Source: Myxococcales bacterium (GTDB taxonomy: Bacteria; Myxococcota_A; UBA9042). From it: DNA of 64,000 bases. Shown here piece after piece: positions 17,853-60,198 of this stretch. Numbering within the stretch: position 1 is the stretch's first letter; every line of letters starts with the position of its first letter. Made by a program: the position numbers and the translations under genes. Location: positions 1,287 to 65,286 of the forward strand of contig CANMNA010000002.1 in assembly GCA_947499075.1 (NCBI GenBank). The letters run 5' to 3'. The notes beneath the pieces were generated by a model. That model was not told the origin of the DNA. It did no database searches and saw only the letters and a program-made list of their open reading frames with translations.

Positions 17853-18204
17853 GCGCTTGCGGTAGCAGGATAACGAAAACGCCGAACCCGGAGAAGTTTT
17901 CCCCAGCGTCACCGGGTCCGGCGCCGTCCGTTCCCGCAAGTCCCAGCGGCCGGCTGGGCAACAGTGCGGTGAGTCTGGCGAGCGCAGCGCTCATAGCCCA
18001 AGCGCGCGGTCGGCAGAGCGGCCACCGTGGCGCACTGCAAAGAACCGTACAGTGGCTAGTTCAAGAGCCGTGCCAACGCAGTGATCCTTAATTTTCTATG
18101 GTTTTTTCAGAATTCGCACCGCGAACACCTGGCCACAGGCGTCGGGCGGACACTGGTCGGACACAAGCGCGTCGGCAATCAGACTGCGTCGGTTCAGACG
18201 ACGA

Positions 18205-18462: not shown

Positions 18463-18538
18463 GATCGGTTCCTCGGGTGGCGCGCTGCCGCCAACAGTCT
18501 AGGTCTTTGTCGCCAAAGTGCAACTGCCATGCAAGGTG

Positions 18539-39868: not shown

Positions 39869-42800
39869 TGGTGGCCCGGTTGTCGCCGTGTTTGATCACC
39901 CCTGGGCCCGTCGCTGCAAGCACGGCCAAGCGCTGATCATTGCTCGGATTGTAGTAGCCGATGATGATCTCGTTGGGGCCCGAGTTGGTGCCCAGCGGCA
40001 CCTCCTGCTCGAACTCGTCGGCGATCAGGTCGCCCGGCATCCAGTGGTTGGTCTGAAAACAGCCGTTGCACGGCTTGTTTTCGTCTTCGCTGGGGTCAGG
40101 CTGGGTCAGCGGCCAGCGATCGAGGTGCAGCGGATGCGGGTGCATGAACAGCTTCCAGCTGGTCGGCGTGGCTTTGACGACCTTCCAATACAGCGTCATC
40201 TTGTACTTCTGCGACCGCGACACGCTGTGATCAGCCAGCTTGTAGCCAATCAGGTGGATGCAGTTGTCAAAGTTGACGAAAATCTTGCGCAGCGTCTTTT
40301 CCTTGGCCAGATCCACCTGAGTAATCAGGGCCTTTTTCAGCCAATTCTGATCCGGTTGGGTCGTCTGCAAGAAGTTGGTGGCGAGCACCAGCCGTGACGA
40401 GCTGGCATCGACTAGCGCGATGTGCTGACCGCCCTGGTGCTGCCGCATGGCGTGGTTGAGCTCGGAGAACGTGTCCTTGGGCAGCACGACGAACCGCTGC
40501 AGTGGCCCCGGCGCGGCAAATAGCTCTGGCTGCACGCCTTGTGGTCGGGCGGCAGACCACTTGTCCAGGGTCAGCCATCCGCGGGTTGCGTCATCGGCGG
40601 TGAGCAGCAGCGTGGCCGATAGCGTCAGCGTGTCCGCCGTGTTGTCGACCACCGTCGCTGTTTGGCCTTGGGGTGCGTACACCGCTGCACCTTGCCAGAC
40701 GCCGACGCTCCACCCAGCCTTGTCGACGCGCACCTTGGCGCCGTCGGCGGCCGACACCACGCCAAACCACGCAGATGCGTCGCGCTGCCCCGCTTTCTTG
40801 GTGTCCAGACCCGCGTGCCAACCTGGCACGGCCACCACGCGGCTGGTGCCACCTTGGCCCCCTTCGCTGATCCGCGCCGCGGCATTGGCGCCTGCCAGTA
40901 ACTGCAGGGTCGCTTGGCGATCTTCAAGCAACGGCATCGACTGCGTGTAGAAATTGTTGTCGTTGCCAGCCTTGGCAGCCCCGTGGGCAAAGGCGCGCGG
41001 CACACCGCGGTCATCGCTGGTGGTGCCGCCCGACTCGGCGATCCGCGCAACCAGATGCTTTTGCGAGAAGTGCACCGACAAGCCAGGCAACAGTGTCCAG
41101 GCGTAGCCGCCTGAGAAGCACACACCCGCCACCACAAGTGCTGTCGCCGCCCAGCGCGGCTGCTCGATGTGCCCGGCCAGGGCCAGCCCGCGATCGACCC
41201 ACCCGGCGACCACGGTTCGGCCAGCTACCCACCGATTGAGCGCGACCACCACTGCGGCGCCGACCAGCAGACCGCTATCCGGCGCGGCGATCAGCACTTT
41301 TGCCAAGTACTTGTAAGGTTCGGCTTGCGGGGTGACTTCGGTCACGTAGCGGCCAGCCAGTGGCCCAAACAGCACGAACAGCGCAAAGGCGCCGGCAGCC
41401 ACGGCTGGCCACGCATAGCCAGCGGCGTTCGCTTGCGCCCGGCCCACGACCGTGAGCACCGCCACTGCAGCCAGCCACCACGTGCCGATCAGGAACAGTG
41501 GAAAGCTCCACGTCCCCGCGGCTTGCGAGGCGCCAATGCCCAAACCCGCAACAGCCAGCAGCCCGACCATGCCAAAAACCAGCGGCGTGCGCTGGCGGGC
41601 CCCAGCGACCAGCGGCGCCCACAGCGAGTCTGTGTCTTGCAGCGGCTTGCCGACGACCAGGACCAGACCCACGGCGATCAGCAGGACCAGCGGTGTTAGA
41701 AATGCCGCCGAGCCCGCGCCTGCTGCCAGCGCACCGCCATAGCCCACCTCTGGGTGCAGCTGCACCAAGACGCCCAAGCCGCTGCCCAGCACCATCAGCA
41801 CGCCGATCGACCACGCGATCAGCGCCACCAGATCGCTGTGCAACGACTTGGCCAGCGTCAGCGTCAGCCGGTACCCGCGCTGGGTCGCCAGCCGCTCGCC
41901 CAGCACGGTGGTCAGCCCGGCCAGCGCCAGCAGCGTGGCGAACACGGCGGCTGCCGCCAGCACTTCGGGTCGGGTGTCCTGGATGACCACCCACAGGCGA
42001 TCATAGTTGTAACCAGTTGTCTGCGCTTGGGTCTTGAGCAACACGTCGAGTTTGCTGCCCAGAGACGCCAGCGCATCGATGGCCCAAATCAAGCCAATCG
42101 CGGCCAAGGTCCACGCCGCAGCCGTACGCGTCCGCAGCCACTGCACCGCGCGCTCGATCGTCGCCATCGGCTTGGCAGTACCCACCGCAAAGGCCAAAAC
42201 GGCCAATAGGGCCAGCACATGGGCTGGACGCGGCATGGCCAGCTCGGCCGGCCACGACGGATCACTGGTGGCACCGACCGCGGCAATCGGCGGGTCAAAG
42301 GCCAGAAACCGCGTTAAAGCATCGCCATTTTTGGAAATCTCCCGGTGCAGCAACAGCGTCGACAGGGCCACGAACGCCGCGGCGAGCCGCCCCGAGACCT
42401 TGCCCCGCAGCAGGTCCGCCAACAGCGCTGCCGCAGCGACCGCGCTCACGCCGGCAATCGGGACAACCAAGTGGTGAAAAGTCCGAATCAGCGTCGCGAC
42501 TACCGCAAACGGCACCACCACGCCGATGAGCAATGCGGCACCGACGTGGGCTGCCCGATCCGTGCTGCCTTCGTCTTGATCGCCGGCGAGCAAACGGCCC
42601 AAACCCAGGGCCACGGCCGCACCCCACGGGAACAGACCAAAGCCGGCTTGGCCGACGAACCAGGCAAAGTCACGGTGGTACTGATCGGGGCCGGCAGAAA
42701 ATGCGCCTTGGGTAAACCGCAGGCCGCGCAGCACCTGGCTATCGGGCTCGCCGAGCACCACGTACGCTGCGCCGCCGAGCAGGGCCAATGTGGCTACGGC

Positions 42801-44063
42801 CAGACTTACCGGTGCCGGTCGCCAGTCCGCGGCCGCCAGCACGTACGCCACGCACATGCCCGCGGCCATGGTCGCGCCGCCCAAGCCGCGGCCCAGCAAC
42901 AGGACTAGTGCGCCAGTCACGACCCACAGCGGCCAGTCGCGGCCGACTTGGACTGGCTTGCGGGCGGCCCCTTGGGCCAACCCCAACGCCACCAGCGTCA
43001 CCCCGAGCATGGGTGACACTTCCAGCGTCAAGATCCGGCCAAAGCCCATCGACATCGGCAACGTGGCGTAGACCGCCAGCGCGCACCACCCACCCGTCGC
43101 GCCAAACAGGCGGCGACTGCCCAGCACCACCAGCAGGCCAGTCAGAAGCGTCAGCAGTGCGCCACCCAAGCGGGCGCCGAACTCAGTTGGTCCGGCCGCG
43201 CTCAAACCGACAGCGGCCACCGCGGCATCAAGCCACGCGATCGGCAGGTTGTTGCCCTCGCGCTTGTGCACCGGCCATGCCCACGGCGATGGCACCGCGG
43301 TGGCCACCGCTCGGATCAACTGGGCCACTGGCACCACTTCGTCGCGGCCGCCCAGCAGCGGCCACAGCCCGGCCGCATCGCTGTCGCTGTCCAGCCAACC
43401 TGCGGTAGCTGCGTTCTTGTTGCCCTGCGCCAGCGCCTTGGCCCGCGCTTGCTGCACTGCCTTGCGCAAGCCCGCAGCGTCGCTGTCGCTGACCAACACC
43501 ATCCGCATGCCGCGGTTCTGGGCCTCGATGGCGCCCAGTTGGCTGGCCACTTCGGTCCATCCGCCGCCTTGCTGCTGACGCACGGCATCGGCATCGACCA
43601 CCAGCAAGTGCGCGACCTCGCGGCCCAACCGCTGCGCCGCACCTTGGAGCGAGGCCAAGGCCCCGGCGTCGAGCTTGGCCGAAGCGCGCACCAGCGCATA
43701 TTGGCCCGAAGCTTGTTTTTCTAGCGTTGCCAGCAGCTTGTCGCCGCTGCTCTCGGCCACCACCACCCGCGGTAGGCCCGCCATCCGCCGCGCGACTGCG
43801 GCGCGGTCCATCTCCCACGGGTCGAGCAACCCAGGCTTGCCCAGTCCGGGCAACAGCGCCGCGGCAAAAACAGCTGCTGCAAGCGCGAGCTGCCACGGGC
43901 GCAGCCGGGTTTCGAGGCGCTGCAGCGGGCTTGCAGGAGGGTCGGGCGCGGGCGGCATCATCGGCGGCTTGCCTCGCCGGCATGGCCGGCCGGAAGGGGG
44001 CGGCAATTTAGCAGGAAACGGCCACGGGGCAAGCGCACATTGCGCGCGCTCAGACGGCACCAA
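39846..44063 (-). CDS. Very large polytopic membrane protein (1405 aa), putative GT-C-type glycosyltransferase or polyprenyl-linked glycan processing protein
   Basis: More than 25 predicted TM segments are present, with a ~330-aa C-terminal soluble domain. It overlaps uppS by 14 nt in the same operon. The functional call is by inference only. Confidence 0.35.
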   Translation of the reverse strand: MVPSERAQCALAPWPFPAKLPPPSGRPCRRGKPPMMPPAPDPPASPLQRLETRLRPWQLALAAAVFAAALLPGLGKPGLLDPWEMDRAAVARRMAGLPRVVVAESSGDKLLATLEKQASGQYALVRASAKLDAGALASLQGAAQRLGREVAHLLVVDADAVRQQQGGGWTEVASQLGAIEAQNRGMRMVLVSDSDAAGLRKAVQQARAKALAQGNKNAATAGWLDSDSDAAGLWPLLGGRDEVVPVAQLIRAVATAVPSPWAWPVHKREGNNLPIAWLDAAVAAVGLSAAGPTEFGARLGGALLTLLTGLLVVLGSRRLFGATGGWCALAVYATLPMSMGFGRILTLEVSPMLGVTLVALGLAQGAARKPVQVGRDWPLWVVTGALVLLLGRGLGGATMAAGMCVAYVLAAADWRPAPVSLAVATLALLGGAAYVVLGEPDSQVLRGLRFTQGAFSAGPDQYHRDFAWFVGQAGFGLFPWGAAVALGLGRLLAGDQDEGSTDRAAHVGAALLIGVVVPFAVVATLIRTFHHLVVPIAGVSAVAAAALLADLLRGKVSGRLAAAFVALSTLLLHREISKNGDALTRFLAFDPPIAAVGATSDPSWPAELAMPRPAHVLALLAVLAFAVGTAKPMATIERAVQWLRTRTAAAWTLAAIGLIWAIDALASLGSKLDVLLKTQAQTTGYNYDRLWVVIQDTRPEVLAAAAVFATLLALAGLTTVLGERLATQRGYRLTLTLAKSLHSDLVALIAWSIGVLMVLGSGLGVLVQLHPEVGYGGALAAGAGSAAFLTPLVLLIAVGLVLVVGKPLQDTDSLWAPLVAGARQRTPLVFGMVGLLAVAGLGIGASQAAGTWSFPLFLIGTWWLAAVAVLTVVGRAQANAAGYAWPAVAAGAFALFVLFGPLAGRYVTEVTPQAEPYKYLAKVLIAAPDSGLLVGAAVVVALNRWVAGRTVVAGWVDRGLALAGHIEQPRWAATALVVAGVCFSGGYAWTLLPGLSVHFSQKHLVARIAESGGTTSDDRGVPRAFAHGAAKAGNDNNFYTQSMPLLEDRQATLQLLAGANAAARISEGGQGGTSRVVAVPGWHAGLDTKKAGQRDASAWFGVVSAADGAKVRVDKAGWSVGVWQGAAVYAPQGQTATVVDNTADTLTLSATLLLTADDATRGWLTLDKWSAARPQGVQPELFAAPGPLQRFVVLPKDTFSELNHAMRQHQGGQHIALVDASSSRLVLATNFLQTTQPDQNWLKKALITQVDLAKEKTLRKIFVNFDNCIHLIGYKLADHSVSRSQKYKMTLYWKVVKATPTSWKLFMHPHPLHLDRWPLTQPDPSEDENKPCNGCFQTNHWMPGDLIADEFEQEVPLGTNSGPNEIIIGYYNPSNDQRLAVLAATGPGVIKHGDNRATIGHLQIR

Positions 44064-45809: not shown

Positions 45810-46766
45810 TCAGGTCGCCGGTTTGGCGGCAACAGTCGGCACTGGTTGCTTGCGGAACAACGACTCACCGGCGATGAGGATCACGCCAACGGTGATGCCA
45901 ATGTCGGCTACGTTGTAGACGGGCCAGCCGTGGGTCTTGCCGTCGATGATAATGAAGTTGTAGATGAAATCCATGACGACATGGTAATGCAGGCGATCCA
46001 CGACGTTGCCGACGGCGCCACCTAAAATGCCAGCCAACGCATACGATGACATGGCCGAGCCGAGTTGTCCTTTCCACAGCCACCACGACAGTGCCAGCGC
46101 CGCCAAACTCGAGATGACGGTAAACAGCAAGTGGCGCACCAGCGGCGGCGCGTCGGACAAAAAGCTGAACGCGGCCCCCGGGTTCTCGGCGTAGACAAAG
46201 TGAAACCACTTGGGGATCAACACGATCTGGCGCTCCATGACCGCCAGCGCTTGCCCCTCGGCCAGCGGCTTGTCCAGCGCGATGCCCTCGTCGGCCGGCT
46301 GCCAAGCCGTCTCGAGCAAGCCCTGTACGGTGCTTGGGTCGATGCGCCACACGTCGGCGATGACCTGCTGCAGTGGCTTGCCCAGATCACGGGGGCGCAG
46401 GTGCAGCGCCCGCGGGTTGGCAAAACCGGTGCCGTCGCTGACGACGATCTCACGGCCGACCTGATCGGCTGTGACTGCAGCAGTGCCCTGCCACTTGCCG
46501 CGCTGCAGCCGGACCAGTGCCATGTTATCTTTAATTTTTTGCGCTTCCTGACCGTCAATGCCACGCGCCGCCAGCAGTGCCGCCACACTCTGACCCGCCG
46601 CCGCATGCAGCAGCATCGGGTGGACGGGACTCGCCAGGTTGTCGGTCGCCCACGCCTTGGTGCCGAGATCGCCCGCGACCACCAGCAACGCGAAACCAAA
46701 CAGCAGCGCCGGGCGCATGTGGCGGGGCCGTGCCGGTAAGATGTCTTGTGATTCTAAGATGTTCAT
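45810..46766 (-). CDS. lspA: Lipoprotein signal peptidase II with a ~190-aa periplasmic insertion
   Basis: The C-terminal part has NPGAAFSF, LGGAVGNVVDRL and VYNVADIGI motifs. The ATG at 46766 is followed by TM1 (LLFGFALLVVAGDLGTK). A long non-LspA segment lies between TM1 and the NPGAAFSF region. Confidence 0.7.
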   Translation of the reverse strand: MNILESQDILPARPRHMRPALLFGFALLVVAGDLGTKAWATDNLASPVHPMLLHAAAGQSVAALLAARGIDGQEAQKIKDNMALVRLQRGKWQGTAAVTADQVGREIVVSDGTGFANPRALHLRPRDLGKPLQQVIADVWRIDPSTVQGLLETAWQPADEGIALDKPLAEGQALAVMERQIVLIPKWFHFVYAENPGAAFSFLSDAPPLVRHLLFTVISSLAALALSWWLWKGQLGSAMSSYALAGILGGAVGNVVDRLHYHVVMDFIYNFIIIDGKTHGWPVYNVADIGITVGVILIAGESLFRKQPVPTVAAKPAT

Positions 46767-46943: not shown

Positions 46944-47924
46944 GTGCCGCCGCGCCTGTGCCCCAACACCGTGCCAACCACTCCAGTCGTCAGCACATTG
47001 GCCATCGAGACAGGCGCGATCTGTCCCCACCCTTGGCCGCGCTTGGTGTGCCCCCTGTGCGGGCCAGCGGCCGAGCCCAACCTGACCGGCCGGATGGCCC
47101 ACAGCGCCGACGCAGCGACGGTCGCCGTGCTGGTCCAGCAGGCACTGCGCCTGCATCCGCAAAGTGTGGTGCTGCGCGGCGGCGAGACGTTGCTGCGCGA
47201 AGAGGCGCTGCAGATTCTGGCGATGGTCCGCGCTGGCAGCGTGGTTCAGTTGGCGGTGTGGACAGCCGGGCCTCTGCTGGCCCGGCCGGGACTAGCGGAC
47301 GCCGTGCGCAGCGCAGGTGCCACTGATGTCGCAGTCGTGCTGTTTGGCGAGACCGCGGCGGGCCATGATTATGTTGCGCAAACCCCTGGCCATTTCCAGC
47401 GGACGCTGGCGGGCGTGCAACTGGCTCGGCGCGCCGGGCTGCGCGTGCAAGCGGTGGTGCCGGTGCTGCGGCCAAGTTTTCGCGGGCTATCCGCGCTGGT
47501 GCAAAAGGCCGTGCCAGCTGGGATCGGCGCGCTGCGATTTTGGGTGCCACCGGGACCGGACCGGCCCGATCATCCGTTGCTGGCGCCGCTGCCGATGGTG
47601 GCGCCGTACCTGCAGGCGGCGCTGCATCTGGCGCGGACTGCCAACTTGGTGGTGCAGGTCGACGGGGTGCCGGCGTGCCAGCTCGGCCTGCACGCTTCGC
47701 TGGCCGATGCTGCGCACGCGGCGATCGCCGCCAGCTCGCCCGCAGACGATCCGCCTGAGTTTGGGTCACCTTGTGGCGCATGCACCTGGGGGTCGCGCTG
47801 TGTCGGCGTGCCGGCATCGCGGGTCAAGGCCCACGGCTGGGTCGGCGTCGCCGCCCGCAGCGACCCGCCAGCGTCTGCCAACTTGCCGGCGCTTGTGCCG
47901 GCCGGCGCAGTCAAATCGGACTAG
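46944..47924 (+). CDS. Radical-SAM-fold protein with a non-canonical Cys motif (C-x8-C-x2-C) and a C-terminal twitch/SPASM-like CxxC...C
   Basis: The spacing from CPLCG to LRGGETLL (39 aa) matches the spacing from CxxxCxxC to GGE in the neighbouring rSAM genes. The C-terminus carries SPCGACTWGSRC. The start is GTG. Confidence 0.45.
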   Translation: MPPRLCPNTVPTTPVVSTLAIETGAICPHPWPRLVCPLCGPAAEPNLTGRMAHSADAATVAVLVQQALRLHPQSVVLRGGETLLREEALQILAMVRAGSVVQLAVWTAGPLLARPGLADAVRSAGATDVAVVLFGETAAGHDYVAQTPGHFQRTLAGVQLARRAGLRVQAVVPVLRPSFRGLSALVQKAVPAGIGALRFWVPPGPDRPDHPLLAPLPMVAPYLQAALHLARTANLVVQVDGVPACQLGLHASLADAAHAAIAASSPADDPPEFGSPCGACTWGSRCVGVPASRVKAHGWVGVAARSDPPASANLPALVPAGAVKSD

Positions 47925-47948
47925 TTTGGTCTGGTTTGGACTGCAGGC

Positions 47949-50003
47949 GTGCAACGCGCGGCACTTTCTGCGATGCTGCCCGCAGCGACTGGCACCCGAC
48001 CCCTCGGTGCGATCGCCCAAACGTGCATGGCCAACCCTACAGACACCTTGAGCCTAAGTATCGACGGCATCGACATCGATGATCTGGTGCGTCAGGGCAT
48101 CTTGAACCGCGATGAAGCCTTGGCGCTGGCGTCCAGCCACCAAAACGAGACGGGGACCGCGCGGTTAGAGGCGATGCCCCAGACCGCGGGCGACACCAGC
48201 GACAGCGAAAACAAGGATCTGGTCAAAGAAGCCGCCGCCCACCACAAGCGGCACTGGGTCCGCGTGACCCGGTTGTGCAACCAGCGCTGCACGTTTTGCC
48301 TGGACTCGATGAACCAAGACGGCACCATGATCGACGTCGAGTCGCTCAAGGCCTACATCCTGCTGGGTCGCAAAATGGGCCGCGAGCGCCTGATCCTGTC
48401 GGGCGGCGAGGCCAGCGTTCACCCCAAGTACATTGAGTTGATTCGCTACGGGCGGCAGGTCGGCTACGACTGGGTCCAAACTGTGACCAACGGCATGATG
48501 TTCAGCTACGGCCGGTTCGCCAAAGCGGCTGCCGAGGCGGGCCTGAACGAAGCCACCGTGTCGATGCACGGCCACACCGCGCAATTGCACGACAAGCTGA
48601 CGGGCACCCCCGGCGCGTTCGTGACCGGCATCAAGGGCATCACCAACTTGCAGGCCACCGGCAAGGTCGTGGTCAACGTCGATGTGGTGATCAACAAGCA
48701 GAACTACAAGTATCTGCACGAAATCATTGGCTACTACTACAAGCTCGGCATCCGCGAGTTTGATCTTTTGCACATCGTGCCCTTTGGCCGCGGCTTTGAT
48801 GAGCACCGCCATTCGCTGTTTTTCGACTTGAACGACGCGGTGCCCTACTTCCGCAAAGCGTTTCAGTGGGCCAACCAGCCCGATCTGTACATTTGGACCA
48901 ACCGCCTGCCGGTGACGTACTTGGAGGGTGCCGAGCGTCTGATTCAGGATCCGCACAAGTTGGCCAGCGAGTTTGACGGCGGCCGCCACAATTTTGAGGG
49001 CTTTCTCAAAAAGGGCCTCAAGCCCGATTGTCACGGCGAGCGCTGCGACTACTGCTTTTTGGACGGCCCGTGCCGCCAGACCATGTTTCCGTACCGCGAG
49101 ATGCTGCAAGCGGGCACTTTTCCCAACCTACGGCTCGACAGCCAGCAAGGATGGGCGGGCACGCTGGCCCAGGACAAATTTGCGGCCCAGCATCCGCAGC
49201 GCGTGGTGCTCAGCGCGCCCTCGGGTACCGAAGCTGTTCAGGCTGTGGACCAATTGGGATTTGCCGATGTGCCGGTCACGGTGCGGCTCGCTGCCGGCGC
49301 GCGCTGGGAGCCTTTGTTTGGCCGGCCGACCGGTCGGCAGGTCGATCGGCTAGCGGTCAGTACCTTGGCCGACGCCCATGCGGCGCTGGTCGGCGCGACC
49401 GCGGTGCCTGCGCCCACCATCGTACAGATCGACCTCGACCAGTTGGTGGCGCAGTGGCTGCTGCAGCACCCCGAAGTGGCGCAAGCGGCAGGCGACCGGT
49501 TGGTGGCGATGCTGCCCAACCACGAGACGCTGTCGGCTTCTAAGGACAATGACCCCAGTCCCCAAACGCTGCGGCAGCTGGCGGCGCAGGGCATCCGGCT
49601 CAAAAACGTGCCCAAGTGTGTGGCGGGCGCCGAGACTGAGCCGGGCGATCACAACACGCTGCACGCCAATCTGCTCGACGCTGCCGGCGATCTGAGCCTG
49701 GATCGCTATGTGCAACACTATGTTGCGCAAGAGTATTATGCCAAGAGCGTGCGCTGTGGGCTGTGTGCTGAAGCCGATCGCTGCAAGGGCCTGCACATCA
49801 ACTACGTGCGCAATTTTGGCTTTGCCCAGATGACGCCGCTTGATGCCGATGGTGTGCCAATTGCCGATGCGGCCGGCTTTGATCAGTTGACCGATCGCCT
49901 CAAAGAGGCCAACGCCGCGCGGTCCAAGCGCGAGCAGCAAAAGGTCTACGGCCTGCACAAGCCGCTGGTTGCTACCGAATTGTCGATCGGGCGCCAGGCG
50001 TAG
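47949..50003 (+). CDS. Radical SAM enzyme (CNQRCTFC) with a ~95-aa N-terminal extension and a ~280-aa C-terminal Cys-containing domain
   Basis: CxxxCxxC and GGE are present with rSAM core spacing. A TGTPG motif is shared with the next gene. The C-terminal segment contains CGLCAEADRC. Alternative ATG at 48027. Confidence 0.7.
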   Translation: MQRAALSAMLPAATGTRPLGAIAQTCMANPTDTLSLSIDGIDIDDLVRQGILNRDEALALASSHQNETGTARLEAMPQTAGDTSDSENKDLVKEAAAHHKRHWVRVTRLCNQRCTFCLDSMNQDGTMIDVESLKAYILLGRKMGRERLILSGGEASVHPKYIELIRYGRQVGYDWVQTVTNGMMFSYGRFAKAAAEAGLNEATVSMHGHTAQLHDKLTGTPGAFVTGIKGITNLQATGKVVVNVDVVINKQNYKYLHEIIGYYYKLGIREFDLLHIVPFGRGFDEHRHSLFFDLNDAVPYFRKAFQWANQPDLYIWTNRLPVTYLEGAERLIQDPHKLASEFDGGRHNFEGFLKKGLKPDCHGERCDYCFLDGPCRQTMFPYREMLQAGTFPNLRLDSQQGWAGTLAQDKFAAQHPQRVVLSAPSGTEAVQAVDQLGFADVPVTVRLAAGARWEPLFGRPTGRQVDRLAVSTLADAHAALVGATAVPAPTIVQIDLDQLVAQWLLQHPEVAQAAGDRLVAMLPNHETLSASKDNDPSPQTLRQLAAQGIRLKNVPKCVAGAETEPGDHNTLHANLLDAAGDLSLDRYVQHYVAQEYYAKSVRCGLCAEADRCKGLHINYVRNFGFAQMTPLDADGVPIADAAGFDQLTDRLKEANAARSKREQQKVYGLHKPLVATELSIGRQA

Positions 50004-50015
50004 GGGCGGGCACAG

Positions 50016-51284
50016 ATGGCCAACATCGGCTACATCCAAATGGTTCGCCACTGTAACCAGAATTGCGGGTTTTGTAGCAACCCGGAGACGCCGTTTTTTC
50101 ACGATCTTGGTCAAGTCCATCAAATCGTAGATGACTTCGTGGCGCGCGACTATTTTGGCGTGATCATGACCGGCGGCGAGCCGACGCTGTCGCCCATCTT
50201 GCCCGACGCGATCCGCTATGCCCGCGAGCACGGTCTGCACGTGCGCATGATCACCAACGGCCAAAAACTCGCGGACTGGGACTACTGTGAATCGCTGTGG
50301 AAAGCCGGGCTGCAGCACGTCCACGTCTCGATCCACAGTTACAAGCACAAGCTCGAAGATTTTCTGACCGGCACGCCAGGTTCGCTGGCTTGGGCTGAAA
50401 AAGCTTTGGAAAATCTGGGCAAGACCGACATCGCGGTCAACATCAACACGGTCATCAACCGCTACAACTGCGATCACTTGCACGAGACGATCGACTGGTT
50501 TATCGAGAAATTTCCCTTTATTCGGCACTTTGTGTGGAACAACCTCGATCCGTCGATCGGTCGGGCTACGACCAACAACTACTTTACGGCGCGGCTGGGC
50601 GACATCGAAGTCAGCCTGAGCCAAGCCATGCGCCGCCTGCACCAGACTGGACGCAGCTTTCGGGTCGAGCGGGTGCCACTGTGCTATATGGCTGAATTTG
50701 CACATTGTTCGACTGAGACCCGCAAGATCGTCAAGAGCGAAGAGCGCATCGTGCACTTCCTGGACAACAAGGGCACGGTGCGCCAGACCGAGTGGGGCCA
50801 CCTGTATGCCGATGTCTGCGCTGCCTGCAGCCTGCGTGCGATCTGCGGCGGCCTATTTGATCGCGGCGATGCTTATGATCCCAAAGAGCTTTCTCCGGTA
50901 TTTGTCGATGCCCGGCCGATCGTGCAGCGCATCGTCAACGACTTGCAAAGCGACCCGGCGTGGCGGGTGGCCAAGTTCAAGAATTTGGCAACTTTGCCGG
51001 CTGCGCACCAAGGTCGCTCCGATCAAGGCGAATACCGCGCTGGCAAGGTGCAGGCACCCAGCGGCGATCGGTTGGTCGAGCCTGCCTTTGATCCGCGACG
51101 CCGCAGCGATGCGACGGCCAAAGACTGGACACCAGGAGAGAATTGGCATCCAGCTGACGATGAAGACGAAGTCGACGTCGGTCTGGCCGTGCCCGCTGAG
51201 CCTGTGGCGACCGCCAAGCTTGCTGTGTCACGATTGCGTCTTGGCGGCCGCCTTGGCCTTGAAACCAGCGCCGACCTCAAGTAG
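50016..51284 (+). CDS. Radical SAM enzyme (CNQNCGFC), a paralogue of the preceding gene, with SPASM/twitch-like CAACSLRAIC
   Basis: CxxxCxxC, TGGEP and TGTPG motifs are present. There is a 12-nt gap from the upstream gene. Confidence 0.7.
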   Translation: MANIGYIQMVRHCNQNCGFCSNPETPFFHDLGQVHQIVDDFVARDYFGVIMTGGEPTLSPILPDAIRYAREHGLHVRMITNGQKLADWDYCESLWKAGLQHVHVSIHSYKHKLEDFLTGTPGSLAWAEKALENLGKTDIAVNINTVINRYNCDHLHETIDWFIEKFPFIRHFVWNNLDPSIGRATTNNYFTARLGDIEVSLSQAMRRLHQTGRSFRVERVPLCYMAEFAHCSTETRKIVKSEERIVHFLDNKGTVRQTEWGHLYADVCAACSLRAICGGLFDRGDAYDPKELSPVFVDARPIVQRIVNDLQSDPAWRVAKFKNLATLPAAHQGRSDQGEYRAGKVQAPSGDRLVEPAFDPRRRSDATAKDWTPGENWHPADDEDEVDVGLAVPAEPVATAKLAVSRLRLGGRLGLETSADLK

Positions 51285-51328
51285 AAGCCGCACACCCCGC
51301 CGCCCCTGACTGTGGAGCATTTTTTGCC

Positions 51329-51802
51329 ATGAGCCTACCCCATATCGAGAACCTGGACGCCGCCGCGAGCCGCATGACACTGGCTCTGGACATCGGCCTG
51401 TACCCCACCGACGTGCTGTACGGCGCGGCCTACATCTTCATCGACCGCGCCTACGTGCTGTTGGACAAAGATGAAGGCGAGGGCCGCTCAGGTCGCTACT
51501 TGGTCCACCTGCGCGGCAAGACGGCGCTGTCTGAAGATCAGCTGCGCGCGCTTTCCGGCGAATTCGCCAACGAACTGCTGAGCCAAGCGCTGCGGCGCAA
51601 AGTCGTCAAAGCCAATCAGAAAATCATTGAAGAGATCGCGACCCAAGCGATCTCGGGCGCGGCTGGCGGCTCGCTGCCCAACGACTTTCTGGCGGCAGAC
51701 GACGACGGTCTGGATTTCTTGGACGATCCGCTCGGCATTGCGGTGCCGTGGGAAGAGAAGTTTAAGAAAAAGAAAGACGAACCGGCTGGCGATAAAGCGT
51801 AG
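51329..51802 (+). CDS. Hypothetical cytoplasmic protein (157 aa) in the rSAM cluster
   Basis: No signal peptide or Cys motifs are present. An acidic C-terminus is followed by a KKKK tail. Any HxsD-like relationship is speculative. Confidence 0.4.
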   Translation: MSLPHIENLDAAASRMTLALDIGLYPTDVLYGAAYIFIDRAYVLLDKDEGEGRSGRYLVHLRGKTALSEDQLRALSGEFANELLSQALRRKVVKANQKIIEEIATQAISGAAGGSLPNDFLAADDDGLDFLDDPLGIAVPWEEKFKKKKDEPAGDKA

Positions 51803-51811
51803 GGGGCGACC

Positions 51812-52057
51812 ATGAGCGAGACGACGCCAACTGCGCCTGTGGTGATAAAGCTCCATCGGGCGCTGTACATGCAGCAAGCGATCAAGGATGCCGCGGAAAC
51901 GTTTGCTGATTTCGCGAGCTTTTCGATCAAGCGTGACGGCGGGCACTACGCGGTCGCCATGACCGACATTTCGACCGAGTCCGATGGCGATGTCGTCGCC
52001 GAGTTTTGCAACTTCGCGCTGTTCAACACCATGCAACGCAAGCGCAAACGCCTGTAG
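51812..52057 (+). CDS. Hypothetical small protein (81 aa), possible RRE/PqqD-like or precursor partner
   Basis: It lies 9 nt after the preceding ORF. The C-terminus SDGDVVAEFCNFALFNT resembles a PqqD C-terminal helix. Confidence in this resemblance is low. Confidence 0.35.
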   Translation: MSETTPTAPVVIKLHRALYMQQAIKDAAETFADFASFSIKRDGGHYAVAMTDISTESDGDVVAEFCNFALFNTMQRKRKRL

Positions 52058-52111
52058 CCGCTCCATTGTACTGCTCTTGGTCCGTACCAACGCCCCCACT
52101 GTGAGGTTTGC

Positions 52112-53611
52112 GTGCAACTGTCTGATGTCGTAACGCTTGGCAAAGTCAAAGCCGATGCGCTGGTGCCGTTCAACCACCGCTGGGTCGGCAACCGCTTTCT
52201 GATTTCGAATGACTTGGGCGACCACCTGTTCGTGACGCCAGATGAGCTGCGCACCTATGTCGAAGGGCGGACCGTGCCGGGCGAGACGCTGCACGAGCAG
52301 CTGATGGCCAAGAATTTTCTGGCCGCTGGCGTCAACATCCAGGTCGAGGCGGCGCGGTGGCGGCGCAAGCGCAGCTTTCTGTTCTACGGCCCAACGTTGC
52401 ACGCTTTCGTGTTGACCCACCGCTGCAACCACGGCTGCCAGTACTGCCACAGCAGCATCGTCGGCATGGAGCGCACCGACACCGACATGTCGATCGAGAC
52501 GGCAGAGCGCGCGGTCGATCTGGTGTTTCAGACCACAAGCCCCGGCGTGACCATCGAGTTTCAGGGCGGCGAGCCGCTGGCGAACTGGGAGGTTTTGCAG
52601 CACATCGTCGAGTATTCGCGCCAGAAGAATGCCCTTGCCGGCAAAGCGCTGTCGTTCTCGCTGGTGACCAACTTGAGCCTGATGGACGACGAAAAGCTCG
52701 ACTACCTGCTCGACCGCAAGGTGCAGTTGTGCACCTCGCTCGATGGTCCGGCCGACTTGCACGACAAGATCCGCATCTACAAGCAGGGCTCGTCGCACGA
52801 GCTGGTGACCGGGTGGATGCGCAAAATCAATCAGCGTTACAAGGATATGGGGCTAGATCCGAATCTGTACCGCGTCGAAGCCTTGCCCACGATAACGCGG
52901 CCGGCTTTGGGTCGTTGGAAGGACGTGGTCGATACCTACATTGATGTTGGGTGCCGCGCGGTGTTTCTGCGCAAGCTCGATCCGTTTGGGTTTGCGGCGC
53001 GCTCGGCCAAGACGTTGGGCTACTCGATGGACGACTTCCTGACGTTTTACATCAACGCGGTCGAGTACATCCTCGAGCTCAACAAGCAGGGCACCCAAGT
53101 GATGGAGCGCCACGCGGCCATCATGCTGTCCAAGATCTTGGCCGATCAGGAGCCGAACTACCTGGACTTGCGGACGCCCGGCGGCGCTTGCATCGGCCAA
53201 ATGGGCTATGCCCCAGACGGCGCGATCTACAGCTCGGACGAAGGGCGGTTCGTGGCGGCGATGGGCGACGAGATGTTCCGCATCGGCGACGTCAACAGCA
53301 GCTACGTGCAGCTGATGACCAACGCGCAGACCCGCGCCTTGGTGATGGCGGGCATCAACGACGGCCAGCCCGACTGTGTCAACTGCACCTACAAGCCGTG
53401 GTGCGGGCAGCAGACTGAGTACAACTACAAGACCCAAGGCTCGCTGTCCGGGCGCATGCGCGACAGCGTGTGGTGCAAAAAGCACAAGTCGATTTTCGAC
53501 TACCTGATGGCCAAGGTCGAGAAGGCCGATCCGGTCGAGATGGCGATTTTTGAGCGGTGGACCACCAATCGGACGCTAGATCACTTTCTGCAGGAGCGCG
53601 GGGCGCTGTAG
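52112..53611 (+). CDS. Radical SAM / SPASM-domain enzyme (CNHGCQYC ... CVNCTYKPWCG) with a ~100-aa N-terminal extension
   Basis: CxxxCxxC and FQGGEP are present. C-terminal SPASM Cys clusters are GGACIGQ and CVNCTYKPWC. The architecture is anSME/peptide-maturase-like. Confidence 0.75.
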   Translation: MQLSDVVTLGKVKADALVPFNHRWVGNRFLISNDLGDHLFVTPDELRTYVEGRTVPGETLHEQLMAKNFLAAGVNIQVEAARWRRKRSFLFYGPTLHAFVLTHRCNHGCQYCHSSIVGMERTDTDMSIETAERAVDLVFQTTSPGVTIEFQGGEPLANWEVLQHIVEYSRQKNALAGKALSFSLVTNLSLMDDEKLDYLLDRKVQLCTSLDGPADLHDKIRIYKQGSSHELVTGWMRKINQRYKDMGLDPNLYRVEALPTITRPALGRWKDVVDTYIDVGCRAVFLRKLDPFGFAARSAKTLGYSMDDFLTFYINAVEYILELNKQGTQVMERHAAIMLSKILADQEPNYLDLRTPGGACIGQMGYAPDGAIYSSDEGRFVAAMGDEMFRIGDVNSSYVQLMTNAQTRALVMAGINDGQPDCVNCTYKPWCGQQTEYNYKTQGSLSGRMRDSVWCKKHKSIFDYLMAKVEKADPVEMAIFERWTTNRTLDHFLQERGAL

Positions 53612-53683: not shown

Positions 53684-53932
53684 GTGGCCATGCAAACAGT
53701 CAACATGCTCGAGGCCAAATCGTCGCTGTCCAAGCTCGTTGCCGCTATCGAAAGCGGCGATGAGACAGAGGTGGTGCTCGCCCGCAATGGCCGACCCGTG
53801 GCCCGGATTGTGCCGCTCGCAGCATCTGCGGCAGGTGCCCGCATCGGCATTGCCAAGGGCCATTTTGTGGTGCCTGCGGGTCTCGACCGGCAAGACCCCG
53901 AGATGGTTGCCTTATTTGAAGAGGGCGCTTGA
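53684..53932 (+). CDS. vapB: Type II antitoxin (Phd/YefM- or VapB-type)
   Basis: It is 82 aa with N-terminus MQTVNMLEAKSSLSKLV. It overlaps the downstream PIN gene by 4 nt. Confidence 0.7.
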   Translation: MAMQTVNMLEAKSSLSKLVAAIESGDETEVVLARNGRPVARIVPLAASAAGARIGIAKGHFVVPAGLDRQDPEMVALFEEGA

Positions 53933-54315
53933 ACTACCTGCTCGATACCCACATGGCGATTTGGGCGATTGCCGACAGCCCAGAATTACCGCCAGCTGCC
54001 CGGGCAGCCATCGGTCACCCACGCAACCAGATTTGGGTCAGCGCCGCTTCGATTTGGGAAATCGCGATCAAGCACGCCAAGCGCCCTAGCGAGATGCCGA
54101 TTACCGGTCACCAAGCGTTGGCGTACTTTGCGGGGGCAGGCTTCACCCTGTTGCCGATTGAGGGGCTGCACGCCGCCGCTGTCGATGGACTGCCCGGGGT
54201 CCACCGCGACCCGTTTGACCGCCTTTTGGTGGCCCAAGCTGTTGCTGAGTCGCTTCAATTGCTGACCCATGATGGCCTGTTGGCGGCGTATGGCCCCAGC
54301 GTTAGCGTCGTGTAG
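53929..54315 (+). CDS. vapC: PIN-domain toxin VapC
   Basis: The TTG start overlaps the antitoxin stop. The PIN motif is LLDTHMAIW, with the acidic residues ...D...E...D. Confidence 0.75.
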   Translation: MNYLLDTHMAIWAIADSPELPPAARAAIGHPRNQIWVSAASIWEIAIKHAKRPSEMPITGHQALAYFAGAGFTLLPIEGLHAAAVDGLPGVHRDPFDRLLVAQAVAESLQLLTHDGLLAAYGPSVSVV

Positions 54316-54602
54316 CCAGGTGCCTATGAACGCAGGCGCTGGCAGCTCCTGCGGGATCCGATGCGCGCACCCCGCTTCTTGCCAAAATGGCAAGCTCTAC
54401 CCTTGCCGACGCCGCTAGTCTGACCGCTGCGCCGATCTGGCATGGCATCTCAACGGACGCATTCCAGAAGTTTCGAGCAGTTGTGCCCGAAGCGATCTGG
54501 CACAACCCTTGCTTATGGAACAACGGTGGGCCCGACCGCGTTTGCTGCGGCCGGTCGCCTCGCCCACCGTCGTTGCCCAAGTCGGGCTCAGGCCAGCTGC
54601 TG

Positions 54603-55607
54603 ATGGAAACGCTGCTCAAGCGCCACTTCTGGATCCTGGCCCTCTTGGGCCTGGCGGTGTTGGCGTACCTGGCCGCGGGCTCGGTCAGCGCGCTGATTGG
54701 CGTTCAGTTGGCCAAAGGCTCGCGCGGCGACGAGAAGCCCCAGCTTGCCGCCGCCGGTGGCGAGTCGGGGCTGGCCAAGCGCCTGCGCGATGGTCGGCTG
54801 CGCGACGAGTCGGGCGCGGTCATGGCCGGCCGCTCAATGTTTCTGCTCGAAGAGCCGCCGCCGCCGCCCGAAGAAGGCACTGACGAAGAGCCTTCCGGCA
54901 GCGATGAAGCGGCAGCGCCACCGCCCGATCCGACTTACGAGCCGACAACGCTGCCGATCAAACTGATGGGCACGCTGGTCGTCACGCCGGATACGTGGTC
55001 GAGCGCCACCATCGAGTTGGAGAAGACCACCCAAAAGATTGTCACGGTCGGCATGGAGCTGCTGGACGGCAAGGCCACCGTGGTGGCGATCCGCCGCAAT
55101 TACCTGGTGCTGCGCGAAGGCGACAAGCTGACGACCGCGCGGATGTTCCAAAACGAAGGCGGCGACAAGACCGCGGGCGGCGAAAACCCGGGCGGTCGCC
55201 CGCCACCCGCGGAACCGCGCCCGACGCCGGCTCCTGCGCGCACCGCCGATGCAGAGCCGGCTGTCCAAGGCGTCAAGAAAGTCGGTGAGGGCACCTACAA
55301 CCTGGACCGCAGCCACGTCAACGACAAGCTCAAGGATGTCACGACGCTGGGCACCCAGGTCCGGGTAGTGCCCAACTACAAGGGCGGCAAATACGAAGGC
55401 TTTCGCATGATCGGCATGGGCGGCGAGAGTCTGTTCAAAGACATCGGCTTTAACAACGGCGACATCGTGCAGGCCATCAACGGCGAGCGCATCGACAGCC
55501 CGAACAAGGCGCTGGCGCTGTATGAGGCCCTGAAGAACAAGGCGCGGGTCACGGTGCTCATTGAGCGCGATGGCCAGCCCAAAACGTTGCGGTACACGAT
55601 CAAGTAA
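54603..55607 (+). CDS. gspC: Type II secretion system protein GspC-like (TM segment, Pro-rich linker, C-terminal PDZ)
   Basis: The internal ATG at 54603 is followed by a TM helix (WILALLGLAVLAYLAAG). A PDZ-like segment GFRMIGMGGESLFKDIGFNNGDIVQAINGERI is present. It lies immediately upstream of gspD. Confidence 0.6.
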   Translation: METLLKRHFWILALLGLAVLAYLAAGSVSALIGVQLAKGSRGDEKPQLAAAGGESGLAKRLRDGRLRDESGAVMAGRSMFLLEEPPPPPEEGTDEEPSGSDEAAAPPPDPTYEPTTLPIKLMGTLVVTPDTWSSATIELEKTTQKIVTVGMELLDGKATVVAIRRNYLVLREGDKLTTARMFQNEGGDKTAGGENPGGRPPPAEPRPTPAPARTADAEPAVQGVKKVGEGTYNLDRSHVNDKLKDVTTLGTQVRVVPNYKGGKYEGFRMIGMGGESLFKDIGFNNGDIVQAINGERIDSPNKALALYEALKNKARVTVLIERDGQPKTLRYTIK

Positions 55608-55619
55608 GGCTTAGCTCGC

Positions 55620-58475
55620 ATGAATTGTTCAAGAACCTACTTTCGATTGGCCAGCCTGTGTGGCGCAGCGCTGGCCGTGCTGGTGGCAGTGGCAGCCGAC
55701 GCCCAAGAAGCCGCGCCCGACGATGCCAAAGGTGGCGAGCGCGCCATTCCGGTCTCCGGCGGTGCCGGCAAGGTCAGCAAGAAGGCCAAAGACGGCGCGA
55801 TCAAGGCTGGCGGTGGCGGTGCGGGCGTCATCAAGCGCAAGGGCGGGGCCAAGCTTGATCCGGAGTCGGACCCGGCGGCCGCCAGTCGCCGTGCCGACAA
55901 AGCGGACCCAGCTGAGCCCGGCCTGCCGCCGCGTGCTGGCGACACCAAGCCGGACGCAGCGCCCGGTGGTGCTGGCGGCGGTGCTGGCTCACCCAAAGAC
56001 CTGGAGAAGCTCGAAGACGTCATCACGATCAAAAACAACTTCATGGACATCAAGTGCAAGAAGCTGCCGCTGCACTTCAAGGTCACCGTCGATTTTCAAG
56101 ACGCGCCGCTCGAGTCCGTGACCAAGCTGATGAGCTGCTGGATGGACCGCAACTTTGTGGTCGCCACCCAAAAGCGCGGCGGCAAGATCACCATCCTGTC
56201 GCCCCAGCGCGTCAGCGTCTACGAAGCCTACCGCGCGTTTCTGTCGAGCCTGGCGGTCAACGGCTTGTCGATCACCAAGAAGGGCGAGTTCCACCACATC
56301 GTCGATTCGCCAGACGCCCGCAGCAGCGGAGCGGAAATTTATGGTCCCAAAGGCAATGTCCCCGATTTGGACAACATCGTCACCCGGTTGATTCGCCTCA
56401 AGCACATCGAAGCCAAAGACGCCGAGCCGATCTTGAGCAAATTCAAGTCCAAGGGCGGAGATTTGTTCATCTACGCCCCGACCAACACGATTATCTTGAC
56501 CGATCAGGGCAGCAATATCCGGACCATTTTGAAATTGCTGCAGGAAATCGACCTGCCGCTGGGCTCGGACAAGATCTTTATCCGGCCGGTTCAAAACATG
56601 GATGCCGCGGAATTGGTCGAAAAAATCAACGCCGTGTTTGGCGAAGGCGGCGGCGGCGGCAGTCGGGGTGGCGCGCCTCCCCCTCAAAATGCCGCGTCGG
56701 CTGCCAAAGTCTCGCTGACCAAAGCGATTGCCGACGACCGCAGCAACCAGATCATCCTGATTACCACGCGGTCCAACTACCTCAAGGTCGACGCGCTGAT
56801 CCGGCGGCTAGATGTGCCAATCCCTGGTGAGGGGCAAATTCACATCCACCACTTGGAGAATGCCGACGCCGAAGACGTGTCGCAGACCCTGTCGTCGCTG
56901 ACCGGCGGCGGCGGGGCCAAGGGCGCCAAGGGCGGCAAAGGCGGTGGGGCCAAGGGCGGTGCCTCGACCGCGCTGTTTGGCGGCGAGGTCAAGATCACCG
57001 CACACAAGGCCACCAATGCGCTGGTCATCGAAGCGTCGCTCAAGGACTACATCGCGCTGCAAAAAGTCATCGGTGAGTTGGACCGCCGGCGCAAGCAAGT
57101 CTATGTCGAAGCAGTCATTATGGAAATCTCGACTTCGAAGAGCCGCAAGACCCAGATCGCGGGGTCTGCGGGCACCACGTTCGACATCGGCGGCGCGACC
57201 GTGCCGTTGCTGTTTGGCCTAGGCGGCTTGGGCATGTCCGGCGTATCGCTGCAGCAACTCAATCAGGGTGGCTTCGCGGCCGGCATGCAAGGTCCGCTGC
57301 TGCAGGTCAACGCCGGCAACAGCGGCAACAGTGGCGTGCCTGCTGGGGTGACACTGTCGATTCCAGCGTTTGGTTTTCTGATCCAGGCGATCCAGGAGAA
57401 TAGCGATGTCAACGTGTTGTCAACGCCGCACATCCTGACGCTGAACAACGAAGAGGCCGAGATTCAGGTCGGCCGCAAAGTGCCGTACCGCTCGCAGACG
57501 ATGGGCGGTCTGGGCGGTCTGGGTGGCGCACTCGGTGGTCTGGGCGGCGCCGCGGCAGGCGCGCTGGGCGGACTAGGCGCGCTGGGCGGCCTGGGTGGCC
57601 TGGGCGGAGGCACGGTGCAGTTCCTTGACGTCGACCTGACCCTAAAAATCACGCCGCAGATCAACGAGAGCGATTTCATCAAGCTCAAGATTGACCAGCA
57701 GTTGCAAGAAGTGGAAGGCATCGACCCCAACCTCGGGCCGACGACCAGCAAGCGCAAGGTCGTCAACACCGTGGTGGTGCGCGATCAGCAGCCGGTCGTC
57801 ATCGGCGGCCTGATCACCGACCGCGAGACCACCGGCGTGGCCAAGGTGCCGGTCTTGGGTGATTTGCCGCTGATTGGCATGCTGTTTCGCAAGTCGACCA
57901 AGCTCATCGAGAAGAAGAACCTGCTGCTGATCGTGGTGCCGCACATCATCAAGGATCCCAGCGATCTCGAAAAGATGCACGAGACCAAGATGGAGCAGAT
58001 TCGCCAGTTTGCCGAAGAGCTGGCGACCAAGCACAAGGAATACGAGGGCAAGTTCAACTACGCCAAGAAGAAAGGTTTTCTCGAAACCGTGTTCCAAGCG
58101 GTCGAGAAGAGCGCCAACCAGCGCAAGCAGTTGGAGAAGGCCTACTACGACAACCAGGACGTCGACAAGGTCGGCGCGCCCGACAGCCATGACTTGGAGT
58201 ACGACCCGGCCAAGGCCAAAGCGCCGGACAAGGACGCCAAGAAAGCCGATGGTGCTGGCAAGAAGCCAGACGAGGTCGAAGACACTACCGAGGATGGCCC
58301 CGGCATCGAAGTCATTGAATTGCCCGAAGATGGCACGCCCGGCACCGCACCCGCCACCAAAGACGGGCCAAAGTCGGAGCCCAAGGCCAAGCCAGCCGTC
58401 AAGCCGCCTGTGGTCGCGCCTGCCAAGGGCAAAGCGGCTGTGCCCGTCAAGAAGAAGAAGAAGGGTGCGAAGTGA
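55620..58475 (+). CDS. gspD: Type II secretion secretin GspD with Gly-rich inserts and a Lys/Pro/Ala-rich C-terminal tail
   Basis: A signal peptide and N domains are present. The secretin core is VLSTPHILTLNNEEAEIQVG ... GGLITD ... VPVLGDLPLIG. Confidence 0.85.
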   Translation: MNCSRTYFRLASLCGAALAVLVAVAADAQEAAPDDAKGGERAIPVSGGAGKVSKKAKDGAIKAGGGGAGVIKRKGGAKLDPESDPAAASRRADKADPAEPGLPPRAGDTKPDAAPGGAGGGAGSPKDLEKLEDVITIKNNFMDIKCKKLPLHFKVTVDFQDAPLESVTKLMSCWMDRNFVVATQKRGGKITILSPQRVSVYEAYRAFLSSLAVNGLSITKKGEFHHIVDSPDARSSGAEIYGPKGNVPDLDNIVTRLIRLKHIEAKDAEPILSKFKSKGGDLFIYAPTNTIILTDQGSNIRTILKLLQEIDLPLGSDKIFIRPVQNMDAAELVEKINAVFGEGGGGGSRGGAPPPQNAASAAKVSLTKAIADDRSNQIILITTRSNYLKVDALIRRLDVPIPGEGQIHIHHLENADAEDVSQTLSSLTGGGGAKGAKGGKGGGAKGGASTALFGGEVKITAHKATNALVIEASLKDYIALQKVIGELDRRRKQVYVEAVIMEISTSKSRKTQIAGSAGTTFDIGGATVPLLFGLGGLGMSGVSLQQLNQGGFAAGMQGPLLQVNAGNSGNSGVPAGVTLSIPAFGFLIQAIQENSDVNVLSTPHILTLNNEEAEIQVGRKVPYRSQTMGGLGGLGGALGGLGGAAAGALGGLGALGGLGGLGGGTVQFLDVDLTLKITPQINESDFIKLKIDQQLQEVEGIDPNLGPTTSKRKVVNTVVVRDQQPVVIGGLITDRETTGVAKVPVLGDLPLIGMLFRKSTKLIEKKNLLLIVVPHIIKDPSDLEKMHETKMEQIRQFAEELATKHKEYEGKFNYAKKKGFLETVFQAVEKSANQRKQLEKAYYDNQDVDKVGAPDSHDLEYDPAKAKAPDKDAKKADGAGKKPDEVEDTTEDGPGIEVIELPEDGTPGTAPATKDGPKSEPKAKPAVKPPVVAPAKGKAAVPVKKKKKGAK

Positions 58476-60196: not shown

Positions 60197-60198
60197 CC

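Follow-up and report, generated by a model that had tools for sequence, protein, structure and literature searches.

A His-Xaa-Ser family radical-SAM operon of new architecture, with no precursor gene nearby, in freshwater Myxococcota

Radical S-adenosylmethionine (SAM) maturation systems of the His-Xaa-Ser (Hxs) type have gone from a bioinformatic prediction in 2011 to a proven antiphage mechanism in 2026 (Li et al., Nat Commun 2026, PMC13128918). In the HXS system of Escherichia coli, HxsB, HxsC, and HxsD are all required to process HxsA, HxsC and HxsD form a complex that was recovered by pull-down, and a modification of +8 Da was located on an SHRSS motif; 99.7% of the HXS systems belong to Pseudomonadota and show the gene order D-B-C-A (PMC13128918). 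The canonical set, HxsABCD (TIGR03976 to TIGR03979 of Haft; PMC13128918), is exemplified by the hxsD-hxsB-hxsC-hxsA genes of Aeromonas salmonicida pAsa4. A second kind, the HxsA4-type clusters, is defined solely by NCBIfam models (NF038313 HxsA4, NF038315 HxsD_rel, and NF038332 HxsC4). Here, we describe a six-gene operon at positions 46944 to 53611 of a 64-kb stretch of contig CANMNA010000002.1 from a Myxococcales bacterium (the whole stretch is called the window below). It is a recognizable member of the His-Xaa-Ser family in a new architecture, with three HxsC-like genes outside the curated families, a pair of HxsD proteins, HxsB, and no precursor in cis. We consider it reasonably likely that the operon supplies the enzymes and adaptors of a Myxococcota-type Hxs radical-SAM maturation system whose substrate is encoded in trans.

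The window has a G+C content of about 60 to 68%, and the operon is made of six intact open reading frames (ORFs), all on the plus strand, that bring together three HxsC-like proteins, HxsD, HxsD_rel, and HxsB in a single co-oriented block:

46944 to 47924, plus strand: g1, 326 aa, HxsC-like radical-SAM paralogue with a noncanonical CX8CX2C motif
47949 or 48027 to 50003, plus strand: g2, 684 or 658 aa, long HxsC-like radical-SAM enzyme
50016 to 51284, plus strand: g3, 422 aa, HxsC-like radical-SAM enzyme with CNQNCGFC
51329 to 51802, plus strand: g4, 157 aa, long-form HxsD
51812 to 52057, plus strand: g5, 81 aa, HxsD-like small protein (HxsD_rel)
52112 to 53611, plus strand: g6, 499 aa, HxsB radical-SAM maturase

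The gaps between consecutive genes are 24 or 102 (depending on the start of g2), 12, 44, 9, and 54 nt. The Radical_SAM family PF04055 matches g2 (56.5 bits), g3 (74.0 bits), and g6 (51.8 bits), and g1 reaches 21.4 bits, under the gathering score of 29.5, in agreement with the original prediction of a co-oriented radical-SAM maturation cluster at this place. A simple scan for promoters and terminators gave nothing decisive, and an Rfam scan of the window gave no match. The block order g1-g2-g3-HxsD-HxsD_rel-HxsB is kept in the 34 closest loci (L003 to L036, in which g2 is 60 to 77% identical to that of the window), with some lineages lacking g3 or hxsB. These loci, the close clade, represent about 30 metagenome-assembled genomes (MAGs) of freshwater Myxococcota, and those with a named source come from lakes or groundwater.

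The most straightforward assignment is that of the last gene. By the NCBI equivalog model TIGR03978, g6 is a full-length HxsB (498.3 bits against a cutoff of 370, covering model positions 1 to 466 of 466), and an alignment with the annotated HxsB from A. salmonicida pAsa4 shows 34% identity over 479 aa (E = 2.5e-105). The protein has an N-terminal domain of about 100 aa followed by CNHGCQYC at residues 105 to 112, and it also gives partial matches to the QhpD, PapB, and SCIFF maturase models. The original prediction had given it a full SPASM domain, and this was not confirmed: the C-terminal region keeps five of the seven canonical SPASM cysteines (C360, C422-x2-C425-x5-C431, and C455) and lacks those of GX4C and CX3C, and the Pfam SPASM family gives no match at E <= 0.1. 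HxsB is 73 to 85% identical to the window protein in most of the MAGs, with lower values in L018 (53%) and in the subclade L020 to L031 (67 to 70%).

The two small ORFs between g3 and g6, which had been taken to have no recognizable function, belong to the HxsD family (TIGR03976/PF27806 and NF038315) and are therefore better described as adaptors than as candidate substrates. By its profile scores, g4 is effectively an HxsD member, borderline for the older model, TIGR03976 (49.4 bits, cutoff of 50, E = 4.4e-13), and a protein identical to g4 carries a precomputed match to PF27806 HxsD. Its HxsD domain spans residues 23 to 111 and is followed by an acidic linker and the C-terminal sequence DDPLGIAVPWEEKFKK. 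This tail (window positions 51680 to 51802), made of the acidic linker and the almost invariant DDPLGIAVPWEEKFKK, ends all of the 16 long-form Myxococcota HxsD sequences that were aligned (from among L003 to L076). The HxsD of L086 terminates in KLAATWEERYGRK, a WEERY version of the tail, and the canonical 96-aa HxsD of Aeromonas lacks DDPLGIAVPWEEKFKK. Read most simply, the tail is a docking motif, a role that is made more likely by its presence also in lineages that carry HxsA4 (L037, L051, L055, and L056).

The downstream partner, g5, is a member of the HxsD-like family (HxsD_rel) according to NF038315 (65.2 bits, cutoff of 41, model positions 1 to 61 of 62), and it shows a weak similarity to g4 (26% over 76 aa, E = 0.003). 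In a census made with hidden Markov models (HMMs), HxsD and HxsD_rel were adjacent in 30 of the 34 loci of the close clade; in the remaining four, the contig stops short of this place. Wherever the two are paired, HxsD_rel lies directly 3' of the long HxsD; the pair was found in 10 distant loci as well, and L045 and L068 have HxsD without HxsD_rel.

The three remaining genes are HxsC-like and stand outside both curated families, TIGR03977 HxsC (cutoff of 268 bits) and NF038332 HxsC4 (cutoff of 500 bits), although one of these two is the top or near-top NCBIfam family for each of them. On TIGR03977 and NF038332, respectively, g1 scores 47 bits (E = 1.4e-12) and 33 bits, g2 scores 78 and 101.5 bits (the latter its top NCBIfam match), and g3 scores 95.6 (its top match) and 78 bits. 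All share a layout consisting of a radical-SAM core, a (V/I)PxC motif, a variable stretch, and CX2CX5CxG. In BLASTP comparisons with the Aeromonas HxsC, g1 aligns over 244 aa (26% identity, E = 1.6e-13), a stretch that takes in the C-terminal CX2CX5C region, g3 gives a weak alignment (E = 1.4e-6), and g2 is marginal. The paralogy that had been noticed between g2 and g3 is real (31% identity over 188 aa, E = 2e-23, with CNQRCTFC and CNQNCGFC, respectively, and LTGTPG in both), but the two are not an isolated radical-SAM pair as first thought, since the operon has three HxsC-like paralogues and one HxsB. The gene g3, with CNQNCGFC followed by C223/C231...C268-x2-C271-x5-C277, is the most conserved of the block (79 to 87% identity in the close-clade loci).

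As had been pointed out, the cluster motif of g1 is degenerate (C27-x8-C36-x2-C39), with the GGE motif kept and a C-terminal set C245...C277-x2-C280-x5-C286. Its orthologues in the distant loci L001, L037, L040, and L058 have the canonical CNNACRFC, the CX8CX2C form is found in the subclade of the window, and in L020 and L027 all three cysteines are lost. Expanded spacing between cluster cysteines occurs in some QueE enzymes. Probably, g1 is a weakened or scaffolding paralogue, and possibly a relaxed enzyme that is still active.

The long enzyme, g2, can start at the ATG at 48027, used by its database orthologues (658 aa), or at the GTG at 47949, which is also open (684 aa). Its extra C-terminal domain, already recognized in the original prediction, measures about 300 aa and is present family-wide. 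An alignment of 42 sequences revealed invariant cysteines at C84/C88/C91, C335/C340/C343/C349, and C531/C577/C580/C586, with the spacings C335-x4-C340-x2-C343-x5-C349 and C577-x2-C580-x5-C586 plus C531, a count that fits one SAM cluster and up to two auxiliary clusters. With an AlphaFold2 model of g2 (mean confidence score, pLDDT, of 87.9), the whole-chain Foldseek matches were confined to the N-terminal radical-SAM core (BlsE 7vob, SkfB 6efn, MoaA, and viperin), and when the C-terminal domain was modeled separately, generic TIM barrels were its sole matches, so that it appears TIM-barrel-like in the model. Given these matches and the conserved invariant cysteines, the domain is a family-wide feature without a specific structural relative, and no curated model covers the long two-domain form. 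We found 1,148 homologues of g2 at E <= 1e-5, and all the named ones come from Myxococcota or "Deltaproteobacteria" MAGs. When one genome per species was scanned, relatives were present in at least 504 species genomes, among them the cultured Polyangium, Chondromyces apiculatus DSM 436, and Archangium.

Compared with the canonical Hxs systems, the operon has an orthologous HxsB, an HxsD-family protein directly upstream of hxsB, and HxsC-like enzymes with the same radical-SAM core and C-terminal CX2CX5C. It differs in having no HxsA in the window, three divergent HxsC-like genes below the cutoffs instead of one, two HxsD-type proteins, one of them with a conserved acidic linker and WEEKF tail, the order C'-C''-C'''-D-D'-B instead of D-B-C-A, and a chromosomal, syntenic housekeeping context in Myxococcota instead of Pseudomonadota. 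The likeness to HxsBCD systems seen in the original prediction was confirmed by the HxsB, HxsD_rel, and HxsD scores given above. Its label of a system of unrecognized type does not hold, as g6 passes the HxsB model, g5 is HxsD-like, and relatives of these genes adjoin the NCBIfam-defined HxsA4. The HxsA4-type clusters resemble the operon in an HxsD_rel above its cutoff and in a multi-radical-SAM architecture, as in L086, and differ in the HxsA4 gene, absent from the window and the close-clade loci, and in the score of HxsC4, which reaches at best 101.5 bits here against the 500 required. Other maturation systems, such as PqqE/PqqD, MftC/MftB, and the SPASM maturases, also combine a radical-SAM enzyme carrying auxiliary Fe-S cysteines with a small partner acting on a ribosomal peptide. 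However, no profile tested showed HxsD to be PqqD-like, no family of recognition elements (RRE) of peptides that are made ribosomally and modified after translation (RiPPs) was detected, four proteins of the radical-SAM fold share one operon, and the substrate of the relatives is a low-complexity His-Gly-Ser (HGS) repeat.

These repeats were found in short ORFs of L001, L037, L051, L055, L056, L058, and L071 (two copies), where they adjoin orthologues of g1/g2/g3 and/or the HxsD pair. They code for a leader of about 50 aa (consensus LPSF...G.LS..E) followed by HCSHGS(HGS)n-W, and the three that were scanned (L001, L055, and L056) scored 82 to 144 bits on NF038313 HxsA4, with a cutoff of 55. 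A profile search of HxsA4 against a set of 5.8 billion proteins gave 484 matches, many of them on contigs of 1 to 2 kb and none tied to the clade of the window; some matches so named come from Omnitrophota MAGs, beyond Myxococcota.

Two of the loci with HxsA4 have neighbors of their own. In L086 (GCA_002348085.1, DDYP01000116.1), positions 6734 to 19347 hold a 13-gene co-oriented cluster that includes HxsA4, two HxsD genes, three radical-SAM enzymes of the HxsB class (451, 279, and 434 bits on TIGR03978), and at least three HxsC-like ones, with a barnase-barstar pair and PhoH/PIN genes upstream. In L001, from a 5-Mb genome, g1-g2-g3 are followed (13009 to 15446) by a TIGR04267 aKG-HExxH-type peptide beta-hydroxylase and by an acidic double-disulfide-repeat protein, and a Cu-binding MopE-like protein is located just upstream of HxsA4.

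The close clade shows how stable the operon is. Upstream and on the opposite strand, lgt was found in 23 of the 34 loci, with uppS beside it in 12 of these; lspA homologues were recognized in 21 close-clade loci. The similarity of related loci to the window ends at the edges of the operon, the downstream edge being the end of hxsB. All six genes are clearly constrained by purifying selection, with ratios of nonsynonymous to synonymous substitution rates (dN/dS) below 0.5 (range, 0.07 to 0.45) by the Nei-Gojobori method against five relatives; the highest values are those of g1 (0.25 to 0.45), those of g3 are 0.07 to 0.12, and the genes other than g1 lie at about 0.07 to 0.27, all of them rough values at a dS of about 1, with one g5 comparison unusable due to saturated dS. 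Nevertheless, some members come and go. The gene g3 is missing from L021, L026, L027, L028, and L031, and L029 and L030 have a deletion of hxsB, while g2, HxsD, and HxsD_rel are all present wherever the available close-clade sequence extends that far. The constant core is thus g2 plus HxsD plus the HxsD-like protein, with g1, g3, and HxsB more variable, which agrees, by analogy, with the HxsC-HxsD core complex of E. coli (PMC13128918). In one subclade (L015, L016, L019, L032, and L036), an insertion of 0.65 to 2 kb carrying minus-strand ORFs for a zinc-ribbon membrane protein and an ExbD-like protein splits g2 from g3, indicating that cotranscription of all six genes is not obligatory.

In the mechanism that we propose, HxsD and HxsD_rel would act as adaptors, each partnering an HxsC-like enzyme and presenting an HxS-repeat peptide, by analogy with HxsC-HxsD of E. 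coli. The active HxsC-type catalysts would be g2 and g3, with g1 as a weakened or scaffolding paralogue, and each HxsC-like enzyme would use its CX3CX2C cluster for SAM cleavage and its C...CX2CX5C set to hold an auxiliary Fe-S cluster. HxsB would then install a further modification. The substrate gene would be located elsewhere in the genome and would most likely code for an HxsA4-type peptide.

Several observations weigh against this reading. None of the enzymes g1 to g3 reaches any curated HxsC or HxsC4 cutoff, and the enzyme set is not fixed, since g3 or HxsB is absent from some sister lineages. The main difficulty is the substrate. A regular-expression search together with a leader HMM detected no HxS-repeat ORF of any type in the window, which reaches 47 kb beyond the operon on its upstream side and 10 kb on its downstream side, and no stop-to-stop segment of at least 20 aa in it had three H-x-S motifs within 80 aa, as the original prediction had already noticed for the lack of a His-Xaa-Ser precursor. 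Neither was any HxS-repeat ORF present within about 10 kb in any of the approximately 30 close-clade loci. Considering loci with the HxsD pair, HxsA4 was within about 10 kb in 5 of the 10 distant ones versus 0 of the 31 in the clade of the window (one-sided Fisher test, p of about 3e-4, for loci that are not phylogenetically independent), so that the lack of a precursor in cis is a real feature of the clade rather than a gap in one assembly. In addition, no biochemical data and no paper were found on HxsA4-type systems.

Other nearby ORFs were considered as substrates or precursors and rejected. In 17 of 27 close loci (L007 to L011, L013, L017, L027, L030, and others), the genes that come after hxsB are one or two small ORFs; they are paralogous, contain no HxS repeats, and are absent from the window. 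Where they could be read (L009, L027, and L030), they are about 210 to 310 aa long, some other segments being shorter; signal peptides are present in the L009 pair, and the copies in these three loci end in YSW like outer membrane beta-barrels. The insertions between g2 and g3 were discarded as precursors because of their minus-strand zinc-ribbon or ExbD-like ORFs.

The protein families HxsB, HxsD, and HxsC-like are those of the experimentally proven E. coli system, so the operon could instead be an antiphage HXS defense system of the kind described by Li et al. (2026), in which a matured effector blocks the entry of phage DNA from the periplasm. A toxin-antitoxin pair immediately downstream would fit this, as would the weak matches of g2, g3, and g6 to the PADLOC viperin models, although these reflect the common radical-SAM fold. 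We find this explanation unlikely. No HxsA effector, and in particular no HxS-repeat protein with peptidoglycan binding, is found in the window, the HxsA4 precursors of related loci are short HGS peptides without a peptidoglycan-binding domain, and both the taxon and the gene order depart from what was described for nearly all HXS systems (PMC13128918). Furthermore, the block is vertically conserved beside lspA-lgt-uppS across the clade and not in a variable or defense island, a stable housekeeping context that argues against a simple transfer of the defense function. The same fold accounts for the low-scoring matches to MoaA, AhbD, NirJ, PqqE, and anSME models, the only hint that these might be housekeeping radical-SAM enzymes (MoaA, anSME, HemW, QueE, or those of heme or PQQ synthesis) clustered by chance. 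This idea, named in the original prediction as what would refute it, is hardly tenable and is effectively refuted by the profile scores: MoaA (<=62 bits, cutoffs of 231 to 325), anSME (76, cutoff of 349), PqqE (<=52, cutoff of 381), and NirJ/AhbD all remain far under their cutoffs, HxsB and HxsD_rel pass theirs, and in many genomes these genes are accompanied by HxsA4 and by proteins of the HxsD family.

The clade-specific absence of a precursor would be explained if the machinery had been retargeted in the close clade to a non-HxS substrate, for example the long HxsD tail or an envelope protein. DDPLGIAVPWEEKFKK is conserved across Myxococcota and absent from canonical HxsD, a WEERY version occurs in L086, the cluster motif of g1 is altered in the same clade, and the synteny with lipoprotein maturation genes is stable. 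We nonetheless hold retargeting to be rather improbable, as the tail is also found in lineages with an adjacent HxsA4, an invariant sequence alone is no evidence of modification, and the lgt/lspA synteny is restricted to the close clade. It seems more doubtful still that in the precursor-less clade the Hxs machinery acts on the HxsD tail DDPLGIAVPWEEKFKK or another protein in trans, and no longer on an HxsA peptide, with the adaptor carrying its own core peptide, in the manner of PqqA or MftA, whose conserved C-termini become cofactors. If this idea were true, the operon would encode a radical-SAM pathway for a modification or a cofactor that is complete in itself, neither RiPP nor defense. 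Finally, the missing precursor, the g1 motif altered or (in L020 and L027) lost, and the deletion of g3 or HxsB in some lineages might suggest a decaying, nonfunctional Hxs remnant left after precursor loss. This is very improbable in view of the six intact ORFs, the low dN/dS at a dS of about 1, and the identity of g3 and HxsB in most of the MAGs; neither frameshifts or stops in most orthologues nor dN/dS values near 1 were seen.

The proteins of the window were also found on an ENA contig of 102 kb. Regarding the rest of the window, a Phd/YefM antitoxin (82 aa) and a PIN domain toxin (128 aa) with a 4-nt overlap come directly after hxsB (53684 to 54315, plus strand); this pair is probably a local insertion, since it is not conserved in any related locus. 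It is followed by a type II secretion cluster (54387 to 61467, plus strand) with a GspC-like protein, the GspD secretin (951 aa), the GspE ATPase, and GspF. Upstream of the operon lies the lipoprotein signal peptidase LspA (45810 to 46766, minus strand, 318 aa), in which Peptidase_A8 covers only residues 179 to 304, so that the protein has an N-terminal extension of about 180 aa; the gene at this position, between lgt and g1, codes for 354 aa in L027 and 319 aa in L030. Further upstream are a multipass membrane ORF of 1,405 aa with no Pfam match at E <= 1e-4 (39846 to 44063, minus strand), a perfect tandem repeat of five 19-bp units (15947 to 16041), and, inside the ORF at 9168 to 11324, repeats of 18 bp by 6.5 units (9207 to 9323) and 15 bp by 5.3 units (9416 to 9495).

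Taken as the enzyme-and-adaptor half of an Hxs system, the operon points to a large, vertically inherited Myxococcota branch of the family, to which the species genomes with g2 relatives would belong, characterized by multiple HxsC-like enzymes, HxsD adaptors in pairs, and substrates of the simple (His-Gly-Ser)n-Trp kind, and in which the enzymes of one clade have stayed under selection with no substrate nearby. The (HGS)n-W peptides may be simpler substrates for solving the Hxs chemistry behind the +8 Da on SHRSS, and the losses in individual lineages are natural experiments on the dispensability of each enzyme. The existence of this branch raises the question of whether Hxs systems have roles other than defense.

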